In this document: in pieces, positions 1 through 7,613 of the stretch
How the letters are laid out: every line of letters begins with the position of its first letter
Position numbering within the stretch: the first letter of the stretch is position 1
DNA from: Candidatus Gastranaerophilaceae bacterium
GTDB lineage: Bacteria; Cyanobacteriota; Vampirovibrionia; Gastranaerophilales; Gastranaerophilaceae
Direction: 5' to 3'
NCBI GenBank assembly: GCA_045638625.1
Contig: JAZUBR010000020.1
Coordinates: 9,660 to 73,659 of the forward strand
DNA length: 64,000 bases
Made by a program: the position numbers and the translations under genes
Notes under the pieces: generated by a model
Databases searched by the model: none
What the model was told of the DNA's origin: nothing
Seen by the model: only the letters and a program-made list of their open reading frames with translations

Positions 1-996
1 CATTAAATATGCAGGTTTATTTTGAATGCTACTTCCGATATAACTTGGCAATAACTTTTCAAAACCTTCTTGAAATTCTTTGAAAAATCTTTCGATTACT
101 TTTGCTCTTGCATTATACGGTCTTGCAAAAACTGTTTCTATTCCGAGTTTTGAGTATAGTCCCTGAAAACCGAGTTCAGTGAAACCTTTATCGTCAGTAA
201 AATATTTAGCTCTAAATGCTCTGCCGTTATCCTGATAAATAACTTTTGGTATCATATCGAGATTTATTATTGCGTTCCTGAGAGCTGAAGCTATACATTG
301 AGTATTTTCTTCAAGCATAATTTCATAACCGACCAATGCAGTTGATTTCCAATCCAAGAATCCAACTAATGTTGCTCTACAAGGTTTTCCTGTAAATGGA
401 TTTATTACTTGAAACGCTAATTTGTGTCCGTCAGTTACAAGAACATCGCCGACTTCAAGCAAGCTTGCATCACGTTTTATGTACGGTTCAACTTTATCTG
501 ATAAAGCTTTTTCTCCATCACGGGCAAGAATCCATTTGTCATAATTATTATCCTTAAACCATTTGGCATAACGACGAAATGTAATATCAGCGGGGATAAA
601 ACTTTGCCCTTGCTCATGCAATTTGTATTTCGTGAGTGCGATTGCTTTACCAATTGATAATCTATTTGGATGCAAAAGCAATCCCATAAATATTTTTATT
701 TCTTCATCATTTAATATGGTCCTGTAATCATTTACCACAGAATATTTGTATTGAGGTAAAAGTTTTGTGTAATCTTCAGTTCCGTTGAGCATCGCATACC
801 AACGATGTAAGCTTCCACGAGAGATTTTGCCTAAAATATCAAACAAGTAAGAGTTTGAAGTATTATGCAATTTCACAAAATCATAATCTGCTTGAAGTTT
901 ATTTTGAGATTTCTTCCTAAACTCAAGCCATTTATGAACTATATCTAATCTTGCTAGTGCTATTTGTTTTGATTTTTCTGGTGTGAAGTTTGTCAT
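1..996 (-). mobile_element. DDE (rve/integrase-core) transposase, TniA/TnsB/MuA-like or IS481-like. The N-terminus is at ~996 and the C-terminus lies beyond the window edge; the gene is absent from the ORF track because it runs off the edge.
   Basis: Reverse translation from the ATG at 996..994 gives MTNFTPEKSKQIALARLDIVHKW... through to ...KPAYLM with no stop before position 1. The ~190-aa N-terminal region is HTH-like. A DDE triad is visible: D in LVTDGHKL, D in IYQDNGRAF, E in AKVIERFFKEF, spaced ~60 and ~35 aa apart. An AAGGA RBS lies ~11 nt upstream. Confidence 0.6.
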
Positions 997-1089
997 AATT
1001 TAAAATCCTTATGACACATTCATCACTCTTGTCTTGGCAGAAGTCAACTATTGCATCTCATATCAAGAGATATTTCGACACATATCAAA

Positions 1090-1300
1090 CTGGAAGATAA
1101 ATTATTTTTGCACTTTGTTGCACAAAGTTGCACGGGGTAAATATTCAAATATATCAAGACTTTAAGCCAAGTTTAAAGGCAAAAAACCAAAATATGAGTG
1201 CAAAATAGTGCAAGAAAAGGGATGAAAGTGCAAAAATTGCCCCTCAAATATCAACACTATTAATCTGCCTCATTCGCCCTAAACTCGGCACTTTTTCTAC
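1090..1300. repeat. Cluster of short TGCAA/TTGCAC repeats in both orientations between the transposase start and tRNA-Arg. These are candidate transposase-binding terminal repeats marking a mobile element end.
   Basis: The sequence reads tttGCACtttgtTGCACaaagtTGCACgggg, then gAGTGCAAaatAGTGCAAgaaaagggatgaaAGTGCAAaaattgcccc. Three direct AGTGCAA copies sit beside a near-palindromic actttgTTGCACaaagt. The region is non-coding. Confidence 0.35.
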
Positions 1301-1396
1301 AAAACTCCCATCATAAAAGTCCTGTTAGGTTATACCGTTTGCGGAGCTAATATGGTTCGACTCCCTTCTCACGGTTTTTACGTAAAAAAAAACATT

Positions 1397-1472
1397 TGCG
1401 GCTGGAGGGAGTCGAACCCACGGCAGACAAGGTTTAGGAAACCTCCGCTCTATCCTACTGAGCTACAACCGC
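1397..1472 (-). tRNA. tRNA-Arg (anticodon CCT)
   Basis: The reverse complement is GCGGTTGTAGCTCAGTAGGATAGAGCGGAGGTTTCCTAAACCTTGTCTGCCGTGGGTTCGACTCCCTCCAGCCGCA. It has a 7-bp acceptor stem (one G.U), a D-arm GCTC/GAGC, an anticodon stem GAGGT/ACCTT with loop TTCCTAA (U33, CCT, A37) and a GGTTCGACT T-loop. The T-stem has one mismatch and no CCA is encoded. The six-frame ORF 1352..1543 (+) is spurious over this gene. Confidence 0.85.
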
Positions 1473-1481
1473 AAATGCTTT

Positions 1482-6305: not shown

Positions 6306-7613
6306 CTACTTTATAATCCTATATATTAAATCATGTTCCACATTTTCGGTATCCGATAACAGGAACGCATCTTGACAATAGTTTAAAGCATTCTGTGTTT
6401 TACTCTCATCATTAGAATATATTGTACAAAGAGTCTCGCCCTCTTTAACGTACTCTCCAGACTTTTTATCAAGAAAAATACCAACACCATAATCAATCGG
6501 ATCAGATTTTTTATCTCTCCCAGCTCCTAACAATTTACAAGCATAAGCAATTTTTAAAGCATCAATATTTTTGACAAATCCTGATTTTTGCGCCTTCATT
6601 TCATAACGAATATTTGTTGGCGGGAACAACGAGTAATCTTCAAGTACAGCAGGATTGCCACCTTGTGCAACAATAAGTTCCCTGAACTTATCTAATGCAC
6701 GCCCAGAAGCAATTGCTTCTTTTAAAATTAATTTTGCAGATTCTATATCTGCAGCCTTTCCAACCTGAAGCATTGAAAGAGCAGCAAAATCATAGGTAAG
6801 CTCTGCAATATCTCCAGTCGTAATATTGCCTTTTAAGAACTCAATGGCCTCTATAATTTCTAAAGAATTCCCAACGGCACGCCCCAAAGGTTCTTCCATC
6901 GATGTTATAACTGCTGTAATTTTTTTATTCAAATTTTTGCCAATTTGAACCATAATTTCAGATAATTGAACGGCATCCTCTGGTGTTTTCATAAACGCAC
7001 CAGAACCGTACTTAACATCCAAAACTATATTATTTGCCCCAGAAGCAATCTTCTTAGACACAACAGAAGATGCAATCAAAGGTTTGCTATCAACAGTAGA
7101 TGTTACGTCTCTTAAAGCATACAATTTTCCATCAGCAGGTGTTAAGTTCTGAGTTTGTGCTCCAATAGCCACGCCGATTTTTTCAACCTGACTCACCAAA
7201 TCTTTAATCGCTAAGTTCGTATTAAAATTTTGAATCGATTCAAGCTTATCAATAGTACCACCCGTATGCCCAAGCCCTCTCCCAGAAAGCTTTGCGACAG
7301 GAACACCACAAGCAGCCAACAAAGGAATAAGTGTTATCGTAACCTTGTCACCTACGCCACCAGTAGAATGTTTATCTACAACAGAATCTGATAAAGCTCC
7401 TAAGTCAACAATATCTCCAGAATTAATCATAGCCTCAGTCAGGTATGCAGTTTCAGCATCAGTCATACCTTTAAAATAAACCGCCATTAGCCAAGCTGCA
7501 AGCTGATAATCAGCAGCCGTACCATCCATTAGCGAATCTATCAGATAATTAATTTCTTCCTTTGAGAGCTCTTTTCCAAGCTTCTTAGATTGGATAATAT
7601 CAACGACACGCAT
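6306..7613 (-). CDS. pdp: Pyrimidine-nucleoside (thymidine) phosphorylase
   Basis: The 435-aa protein carries STGGVGDKVT, LSGRGLGHTGGTIDKLESI and TLCTIYSNDE in a family-typical layout. Confidence 0.85.
   Translation of the reverse strand: MRVVDIIQSKKLGKELSKEEINYLIDSLMDGTAADYQLAAWLMAVYFKGMTDAETAYLTEAMINSGDIVDLGALSDSVVDKHSTGGVGDKVTITLIPLLAACGVPVAKLSGRGLGHTGGTIDKLESIQNFNTNLAIKDLVSQVEKIGVAIGAQTQNLTPADGKLYALRDVTSTVDSKPLIASSVVSKKIASGANNIVLDVKYGSGAFMKTPEDAVQLSEIMVQIGKNLNKKITAVITSMEEPLGRAVGNSLEIIEAIEFLKGNITTGDIAELTYDFAALSMLQVGKAADIESAKLILKEAIASGRALDKFRELIVAQGGNPAVLEDYSLFPPTNIRYEMKAQKSGFVKNIDALKIAYACKLLGAGRDKKSDPIDYGVGIFLDKKSGEYVKEGETLCTIYSNDESKTQNALNYCQDAFLLSDTENVEHDLIYRIIK

Follow-up and report, generated by a model that had tools for sequence, protein, structure and literature searches.

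The first 1334 bases of the window analysed here, a stretch of 64,000 nucleotides from a Candidatus Gastranaerophilaceae bacterium, are probably the transposase-proximal end of a cargo transposon, which carries a transposition module derived from Mu-like phages and sits behind the gene for tRNA-Arg(CCT). This is the best overall explanation of our data, and we hold it with good confidence. Comparison of related insertions showed that the family inserts in one orientation behind transfer RNA (tRNA) and transfer-messenger RNA (tmRNA) genes generally. The right boundary of an inserted element, which the first-pass annotation had placed in this part of the window, was located at base 1334 by comparison with ~60 related insertions.

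The boundary was determined by aligning the contigs of relatives with the window. Homology among insertions at different tRNA loci begins at TATAACC..., base 1334, and it stops at this identical base in six loci and then in ~60 more; upstream of the tip, the flanks of the relatives are mutually unrelated and contain differing tRNA or tmRNA genes. The element tip reads 5'-TATAACCTAACAGGAC (1319..1334, minus strand), and this terminal inverted repeat was recognised from the end mapping and from its likeness to the right ends of relatives. Extending the mapping to 80 further metagenomic loci with transposases 80-98% identical gave the same picture, with a family tip consensus of T(A/G)TA..(C/T)T..CAGGAC and end subfamilies represented by TATAGGTTTTCAGGAC, TATAGTTTATCAGGAC, TGTAGTTTATCAGAC, TGTAAATAAAGTGCAAG and GGGGTTTATTAGTCC. 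The transposase-proximal ("left") end comprises 338 bp of non-coding DNA (997..1334, minus strand), followed by a chromosomal spacer of 61 bp (1335..1395) up to the 3' end of the tRNA-Arg gene, which faces the transposase gene. The non-coding stretch between transposase start and tRNA, previously given as ~300 bp, therefore measures 399 bp (997-1395), and the element does not abut the tRNA as had been described. The tRNA-Arg(CCT) gene itself, the landmark of the target site, was confirmed on the minus strand by ARAGORN (1396..1473) and by Rfam (57 bits at 1397-1472).

The opposite end of the element was seen in relatives, which are designated here by locus numbers. Their right ends finish ...GTTAAATTACA; its reverse complement, TGTAATTTAAC, forms with the left tip an imperfect inverted repeat in which 8 of the first 11 tip bases agree. 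Where a right end abuts another copy, it was recognised as ...CCATCTCATAGTTAATTTAATCTTGTTCTGTATGTTAAATTACA. It lies only ~65 bp past the last cargo gene and contains no TTGCAC copies. Ends of Tn7-like transposons start 5'-TGT and have several ~20-bp transposase sites in direct repetition at either end. In this family, the tips read T(G/A)TA..., with the short terminal inverted repeat common to the right end, and conserved GA(G/T)AT repeats occur at both ends, although this motif is short. Four complete copies could be delimited in this manner: L001 (12.1 kb), L140 (11.9 kb), L162 (7.4 kb, a deletion derivative) and L202 (7.3 kb). The matching inverted-repeat end expected by the first-pass annotation was thus found in relatives, whereas no clear target-site duplication, a feature it had also proposed to define, was seen in the four complete copies.

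Target selection was evaluated in the 61 loci whose flank measured 250 nt or more. In 56 of these, an RNA gene (tRNA or tmRNA) was present upstream, and in all 56 it lay on the same strand with the RNA 3' end facing the left end. The distance between the RNA gene and the tip was 25-140 nt (median ~61), with two further cases at 250 nt in which a duplicated tRNA 3' end lies between, so that 54 of the 56 copies were within 200 nt. The targets include more than 20 tRNA species and tmRNA, and two of the five remaining loci are tandem copies that abut the right end of another element. An element with a 100% identical transposase (P0074) and an identical tip was found behind tRNA-Leu(GAG), tRNA-Gly(CCC) and a third tRNA, and one tRNA-Gly(CCC) gene is followed by two different elements, at +40 and +97. 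These data bear out the earlier proposal that tRNA 3' ends are preferred targets.

This target preference was also considered in more distant relatives. In a clade with 50-57% identical transposases that retains the winged-helix gene described below, one copy lies 55 bp behind tRNA-Leu and another downstream of tRNA-Asp (IMG/VR). Among IMG/VR relatives of at most 51% identity without a detectable winged-helix gene, no tRNA was found within 1.5 kb upstream in 44 of 44 intact cases whose upstream flank reached 1 kb or more; these relatives look like ordinary Mu-like phages.

At the left edge of the window lies the 5' part of a MuA/TnsB-like DDE transposase gene (1..996, minus strand), whose frame opens at 996 and runs without a stop through 332 codons until the window edge cuts the gene. 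The fragment matched Pfam rve at residues 207-295 (27.2 bits, under the gathering score), and the open frame and this match substantiate the leftward DDE/rve transposase gene first described from the letters. A homologue search of 5.8 billion proteins showed that the fragment is 93-97% identical, over its entire length, to proteins of 564-572 aa with rve and Mu-transpos_C domains, one of which is named from a Candidatus Gastranaerophilaceae metagenome-assembled genome; in a full-length relative, Mu-transpos_C was over its Pfam cut-off (E 7.8e-14). The catalytic residues D189, D256 and E302 are invariant in relatives down to 33% identity, and the D189-D256 spacing (67 residues) equals that of MuA. 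The proposed D, D, E triad therefore stands, whereas the helix-turn-helix (HTH) N-terminus proposed with it found no Pfam HTH match.

An RNase-H-like rve core with the DDE triad together with Mu-transpos_C characterises the MuA/TnsB/TniA class, and the full-length homologues, which possess both, agree with the likeness to this class noted earlier; judged by its sequence, the enzyme belongs to the MuA/TnsB class of DDE transposases. A close homologue of the window enzyme matched the Mu-like "transposase" family phrog_310 at residues 6-560 (E 2.9e-88), and the closest annotated phage proteins are transposase A of phiRTG5, BalMu-1 and D3112-like phages (23-31% identity). PDB sequence and profile searches matched a single transposase among solved structures, ShCAST TnsB, at a weak E of 0.025-0.33. 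The AlphaFold2 (AF2) model of the transposase had a predicted local distance difference test score (pLDDT) of 37 and was unusable for fold comparison.

Behind the left end, relatives carry an overlapping operon that encodes the transposase, a 226-aa AAA+ protein, a 167-191 aa protein and a 135-aa HTH protein, and the first, second and fourth of these genes were placed with Mu-like phages by the PHROG library. The ATPase matched AAA_22 (2e-12) and TniB (6.5e-6, 26.2 bits against a Pfam cut-off of 22.4), as well as phrog_296 "DNA transposition protein" (E 5.4e-40), with weak PDB matches to VchTnsC and MuB. The HTH protein matched phrog_756 (E 3.8e-12) and, weakly, DUF1804 (24.9 against a Pfam cut-off of 29), Terminase_5 and MerR.

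The third protein matched Phage_int_SAM_3, and its AF2 model (pLDDT 87) showed a winged helix followed by an integrase core-binding (CB) fold. Its gene is translationally coupled to the ATPase gene. There are 722 homologues; the 120 listed are nearly all 167-169 aa, and none of those has a recombinase catalytic domain. The winged helix of ~50 residues is conserved, with an invariant ECDC motif, while the CB part occurs as two divergent types, A and B, which are swapped between otherwise similar elements; in the relatives with 50-57% identical transposases, the same N-terminus is joined to unrelated C-terminal regions, in versions of 225-595 aa (534-595 aa in L232-L234 and L254). This combination of a conserved N-terminus and a variable, putative DNA-binding module resembles the TniQ/TnsD and TnsF selectors (PMC10293859).

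Regarding the tniB/tnsC and tniQ homologues that had been expected upstream, the TniB-matching ATPase was found in relatives, but TniQ was absent from the Pfam labels of the L001 genes and the first ~12 kb of L002-L004, no TniQ-specific profile search having been made. In the same regions no resolvase or Cas12k family was present among the labels, and no TnsA family among those of the L001-L007 genes, in each case without a dedicated search. The complete copy L001 listed neither a Cas12k/TnpB-type Pfam label nor a CRISPR array, its interior not having been scanned for CRISPR repeats. The module is therefore Mu-phage-like (phrog_310, phrog_296) and not of the Tn7 or Tn5053 type, both of which had earlier been named alongside Mu.

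The complete copies (7-12 kb) consist of the four core genes and defence cargo, with 4-9 kb of cargo before the right end, and the relatives' host lineage is Gastranaerophilaceae. L001, whose transposase is 97% identical to the window fragment, carries a type II cyclic-oligonucleotide-based anti-phage signalling system (CBASS). A CBASS is also found in L162; a retron reverse transcriptase with WYL, SoFic and TIR/ThsB-like genes in L140; PDC-S02 and RosmerTA (RmrA) in L202; and type I restriction-modification with Fic in L002-L004. The largest cargo open reading frames (ORFs) are 455 aa in L140, 568 aa in L162 and 388 aa in L202. Cargo to the left of the boundary, as the first-pass annotation had suggested, is thus evident in relatives, including defence systems, whereas that of the window's own copy is deduced from them.

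The L001 cargo additionally contains a 181-aa tyrosine recombinase (10280-10825) that consists of the catalytic domain only, with R, HxxR and Y motifs visible, and thereby complements the CB-only third gene; it could be one part of a split recombinase or a cointegrate resolvase. The sequenced part of L002-L004 has no such gene listed.

The subterminal DNA of the left end contains a conspicuous repeat array. Three TTGCAC copies spaced 10 bp apart (1108, 1118 and 1128; 1108..1133, plus strand) and three GTGCAA copies in inverted orientation relative to them (1198, 1208 and 1228; 1198..1233, plus strand) were found by repeat search. These six copies fall within 126 bp, compared with 44 in the entire 64 kb (Poisson probability ~1e-9 per 140-bp segment), and no other segment of this size in the 64 kb has four or more. 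The AGTGCAA/TTGCAC repeats in both orientations reported by the first-pass annotation are therefore real and far beyond chance (1108-1233), but their interpretation as multi-site transposase-binding ends is doubtful. They sit 102-227 bp inside the tip, are present at the transposase end only and absent from the right end, and are kept within the window's subfamily, while other subfamilies have ATGTCC or GGAC-type hexamers instead; the hexamer switches between subfamilies even though the transposases remain at least 82% identical. Between the triplets, a consensus scan detected a promoter-like site directed toward the transposase gene, TTTAAA-18-TATATT with an upstream TG (1148..1177, minus strand). 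Because the array is subterminal, confined to one end and variable among subfamilies, and flanks a promoter-like site, it probably represents operator or accessory (enhancer or pac-like) sites rather than terminal transposase sites.

The sampled end subfamilies share the tip, a motif of the TGAGAT type around +100 and a block of 80 bp that lies shortly before the transposase start (1014..1092, minus strand; GTTTGATATGTGTC ... CTCTTGATATGAGAT ... GAGTGATGAATGTGT). The block was recognised by aligning 11 left ends from different subfamilies; right ends have GAGAT copies in inverted orientation. This block may comprise transposase sites or a 5' leader. A sub-threshold match to the Rfam Mu-gpT-DE RNA motif lies inside it (1017-1068, minus strand; 23.9 bits against 49, E 0.0034), and Rfam detected no RNA family in the element end or the tRNA-Arg unit besides the tRNA itself. 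In L001 (4290-4430), the conserved leader is split by a GC-rich, hairpin-rich insert of ~130 bp, with similar inserts in L189 and L191, and this may be a small mobile insert.

Based on this evidence, the winged-helix/CB protein may act as a target selector or adaptor, a role that we consider a real possibility while stopping short of calling it probable. In such a mechanism, the protein would recognise what tRNA and tmRNA genes have in common (T-arm/acceptor DNA) and seed the assembly of the MuB-like ATPase on the AT-rich stretch downstream. The ATPase would bring in the transposase in a single orientation, and the transposase would join the element ends there. The loose spacing of 25-140 bp is more readily explained by an ATPase filament whose length varies than by a fixed ruler. 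A bolder version, which we offer as speculation, is that a near-random Mu A/B machinery has been turned by a minimal winged-helix/CB adaptor into a generic homing device for any tRNA gene. This device would be protein-only and TniQ-independent, would recognise T-arm/acceptor DNA (or perhaps, instead, the nascent tRNA or the R-loop of the latter), and would deliver the element in one orientation to a safe zone behind the gene, perhaps with helper-phage packaging (as a Mu satellite) spreading defence systems among gut Melainabacteria.

Several points weigh against these interpretations. The genes of the window's own copy beyond the transposase, like its cargo, are presumed from relatives with left ends 80-89% identical. 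A target-site duplication is expected for Mu/Tn7-type transposition, and neither a 5-bp nor any other clear duplication was present in the four complete copies, three of which abut other elements; in those three, flanks could have been exchanged by recombination, and the flanks of L001 are two paralogous hairpins. The left ends contain no T-arm-like or antisense "guide" sequence. Moreover, the insertion distance is loose (25-140 bp), whereas TnsD-guided insertion behind tRNA-Leu is precise at 29 +/- 1 bp (PMC9881144). That the third gene and tRNA adjacency go together is a clade-level correlation, which lacks phylogenetic independence. Finally, CB types A and B are each found at many tRNAs and tmRNA, the type does not partition the targets, and the unrelated C-terminal domain is likewise found at tRNA sites; the variable domain therefore does not explain the specificity.

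The lack of partition by CB type also counts toward a different assignment, in which the winged-helix/CB protein is a repressor or an architectural factor for its own end. It or the HTH protein would bind the array of three plus three repeats, and the choice of tRNA genes would be due to some other component (the HTH protein, the ATPase with the transposase, or a host factor). The inverted triplets on both sides of a promoter-like site, their restriction to the transposase end and a hexamer that varies by subfamily among transposases at least 82% identical all agree with this assignment. However, one and the same TTGCAC array is found with either type of CB domain, A or B, so that the CB type does not covary with the repeats either; the third gene is translationally coupled to the ATPase gene in a transposition operon, and its loss coincides with the lost tRNA association in relatives. 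We regard this alternative as somewhat unlikely. Still less probable to us, while compatible with a phage-derived cargo transposon, is a reading of the element as a natural "mini-Mu", or satellite, of transposable phages. It would then retain A/B and its ends for replicative transposition, its HTH protein would be small-terminase-like, and the left-end array would serve as a pac site through which a Mu-like helper phage packages the element with its defence cargo. The A, B and HTH proteins do match Mu-like phage families, the HTH protein has the weak DUF1804, Terminase_5 and MerR matches, the repeats are found at the left end only, where the pac site of phage Mu also lies, and elements of 7-12 kb without structural genes would suit satellites, a class known to transport defence systems. 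The IMG/VR viral contigs also include Mu-like phages whose transposases are 43-51% identical. On the other side, DUF1804 scored under its cut-off (24.9 against 29), no capsid-remodelling or other satellite hallmark genes were seen, no helper was identified, and a satellite has no need of oriented, tRNA-specific insertion.

The tRNA association could in principle arise from survival bias, with insertion being random and survivors persisting only in permissive, recombination-prone islands behind tRNA genes. The region behind tRNA-Arg is indeed a hypervariable island site, with prophage, integrase-type remnants and other islands in other strains, and some sites have duplicated integrase-type tRNA 3' ends. 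Nevertheless, the uniform orientation of all 56 tRNA-adjacent copies and the proximity of 54 of them, the many other intergenic regions that are essentially unused, the identical element behind at least three different tRNAs, and the count of 0 of 44 for Mu-like relatives without the third gene make this explanation very improbable. Hardly any weight can be given to a simple IS481- or IS3-type insertion sequence (IS) without cargo, which the first-pass annotation had named as the finding that would overturn the cargo-element reading. NCBIfam returned weak matches to IS481, ISNCY, IS3 and IS21, but the scores were far under the cut-offs (IS481 39.8 bits against 224, IS3 17.5 against 160 and IS21 16.5 against 160), and we rejected all such types. 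In addition, the full-length homologues of 564-572 aa contain Mu-transpos_C, and relatives add the ATPase, two DNA-binding genes and 4-9 kb of cargo before the right end. For the relatives, at 7-12 kb with defence cargo, a simple IS is thus contradicted.

Preferring a cargo transposon with a Mu-type module, we compared the family with described systems. Mu-like phages (Mu, D3112/B3-like phages and BalMu-1) share with it a transposase with rve and Mu-transpos_C followed by a MuB-like AAA+ "DNA transposition protein", strong PHROG matches for both proteins, phage transposase A as the best annotated match and a transposase adjoining the left end. The family differs from these phages in that its complete copies have defence cargo in place of phage structural or lysis genes, in that it inserts oriented behind tRNA/tmRNA genes instead of near-randomly and with no 5-bp duplication observed, and in its extra winged-helix/CB protein. 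A complete Mu-like prophage (35-40 kb with head, tail and lysis genes) was rejected because the copies are 7.3-12.1 kb and have only the four core genes and defence cargo.

Similarities were also noted with type V-K CRISPR-associated transposons (CASTs) of the ShCAST type, for which tRNA-directed insertion by homing guides is known. TnsA is absent from these CASTs and from the gene labels listed for the family; both have, in this order, a transposase, an ATPase and a small third protein (~170 aa) at a left end that faces a tRNA gene tens of bp away; both have a MerR/HTH-type small regulator, the host of the family belongs to a sister lineage of Cyanobacteria, and ShCAST TnsB is the only solved-structure transposase match, with marginal similarity. 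In contrast to these CASTs, the listing for the complete copy L001 shows neither Cas12k nor a tracrRNA nor a CRISPR array, the third protein is a winged helix with an integrase CB fold and not TniQ, and many tRNAs are used rather than one guide-defined site. A type V-K CAST was rejected on the missing Cas12k/TnpB-type label in L001 and the absence of a T-arm-like or antisense guide from the left ends.

An AAA+ TnsC/TniB protein next to the transposase, a mark of Tn7-like elements, is present as the 226-aa ATPase. Cyanobacterial Tn7-like elements (PmcCAST/McCAST homing) use a TnsAB fusion and a TniQ-domain TnsD, and each TnsD is specific to one tRNA, with insertion at 29 +/- 1 bp (PMC9881144). 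Such tRNA-targeting TnsD elements share with the family a protein-guided, oriented insertion downstream of a tRNA gene by a DDE transposase and an AAA+ regulator, the protein guide being putative in our case, but the family has no listed TniQ or TnsA and uses more than 20 tRNA species and tmRNA at 25-140 bp. TnsF of Tn6022-like transposons, a protein of ~500 aa, combines zinc fingers at its N-terminus with a pair of CB domains and part of a catalytic domain; it acts via TniQ on comM (PMC10293859). Like TnsF and Tsy from the same report, the third protein is a non-catalytic, tyrosine-recombinase-derived protein with a CB domain in a DDE transposon, and on the TnsF side the role is that of a target selector. 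The third protein, a putative selector, differs from TnsF in its size of 167-191 aa, its single winged helix and single CB domain and its lack of a TniQ partner; a TnsF-type selector was rejected since the AF2 model showed one winged helix and one CB domain in 167 aa and no TniQ was listed. Tn5053/Tn402 and Tn552 share the TnsA-less pair of transposase and ATPase, but those transposons insert at res or dif-type sites and encode TniQ, a resolvase or both, whereas the family has neither listed and targets tRNA/tmRNA genes. A tyrosine-integrase genomic island was likewise rejected, as the third gene has no catalytic domain and the junction lies 25-140 bp beyond the tRNA, not inside its 3' part; the flanks at these junctions are unrelated, and the tRNA 3'-end repeats nearby belong to separate remnants. 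Full-text searching of the literature found no description of this transposon family.

Further observations concern how copies accumulate. New copies often insert 1-47 bp within resident left ends, where short terminal fragments remain. Nested terminal fragments of 13-47 nt pile up in the left ends of L142 (9615-9664), L153 (2470-2510), L202 (6080-6122 and 13421-13475), L140 (16362), L217 (3145-3150) and L203 (3933). At these junctions a right end meets the left end of the next element with a 0-4 bp spacer or a small truncation, and no 5-bp duplications were found there. L202 has an 8-nt right-end tail, GAATTACA, inside a left end, resembling a footprint. A degenerate copy (L218-L224, L185, L225/L231) follows tRNA-Ser(TGA) at ~3.4 kb and was seen in seven contigs from different samples, with transposase pieces of 102, 112 and 337 aa, an eroded left end, and a cargo of Eco57I-type methylase, HATPase and HNH genes; the P0198 loci represent one degenerate, fixed copy with a fragmented transposase gene.

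In the clade with 50-57% identical transposases, a second, very divergent Mu-like module lies ~0.5 kb after the third gene (L226:4406-7262, on the same contig as L235; L237:6077-8050; L241:3620-5578). In L226 it comprises an A/B pair followed by phage-type early genes, and in L237 and L241 only the first ORF of ~650 aa; a Mu-like phage seems to lie repeatedly inside or beside elements of this clade. The 14-nt tip TATAACCTAACAGG also forms the final codons and stop (…YPVRL*) of a tandemly duplicated gene family (L014:~7281-7294; L071:3632 and 4508) in other Gastranaerophilales-type genomes (Clostridium sp. CAG:768), a rare clade. In a scan with the 14-mer, the matches were mostly due to chance, and 2 of the 87 matches listed (of 120) came from this rare CAG:768 clade.

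At the tRNA-Arg(CCT) locus, the 61-bp spacer contains a 13-nt antisense copy of the tRNA T-arm (1354-1366; a 13/13 inverted repeat), and such a perfect copy was seen at this locus only, among 73 tRNA flanks. Orthologous tRNA-Arg loci were located through the HU protein, and none of them contained the element. In strains without the transposon, the tRNA-Arg(CCT) gene is followed by a unit of ~115 nt (L130:11556-11670, L131:8996-9220, L136:6471-6590). The unit opens with 28 nt of AT-rich sequence and a perfect T-arm antisense copy of 12-13 nt; two hairpins follow, with GGTTCTTACCTCTC between them, and the last part repeats the tRNA 3' end directly (CTCCAGCCGCA). The comparison with strains lacking the insertion, as recommended by the first-pass annotation, thus showed that element-free loci keep the spacer segment as the start of this unit. 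The window retains the first third of the unit, with the transposon tip within the first hairpin between GG and TTC; the remaining part of the unit is GGTTCTTACC...CTCCAGCCGCA. Two units stand in tandem in L131, and a Y1 transposase gene adjoins the unit in L136. The unit, which matched no Rfam family, may be what is left of an integrase att site, or else a small PATE-like element.

The area behind tRNA-Arg (window ~1335 leftwards; L128-L137) is hypervariable among strains that share an identical HU protein. Its contents include a prophage with terminase (L129), radical-SAM or MerR-type islands (L128, L130), small-gene islands (L131, L132, L135) and an IS200/IS605 TnpA (L136).

Targeted DDE transposons such as Tn7 and CASTs are important in two respects, since they shape bacterial genomes and provide tools for genome insertion. 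The family described here is a variant of targeted Mu/Tn7-type transposons whose set of genes has no precedent among the tRNA-targeting transposons of the literature searched, and it is distinct by its Mu-type A/B pair without listed TniQ or TnsA, its minimal winged-helix/CB protein, its generic tRNA/tmRNA targets and its loose spacing. In the systems covered by the literature consulted, the transposase/ATPase pair is tied to the target via a TniQ-family protein or a CRISPR effector, and each protein selector serves one site. The present family appears able to insert behind practically any tRNA or tmRNA gene. If the winged-helix/CB protein is indeed an adaptor, target selection would have a third route, independent of the other two; the family would parallel, in bacteria, the homing of eukaryotic retrotransposons to tRNA genes, and it would offer a compact system for which each genome holds numerous natural safe harbours. 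For Gastranaerophilaceae, a poorly studied gut lineage, the family is a major vehicle for CBASS, retrons, restriction-modification, RosmerTA and Thoeris-like systems, and it explains the hypervariable islands found behind the tRNA genes of these bacteria.

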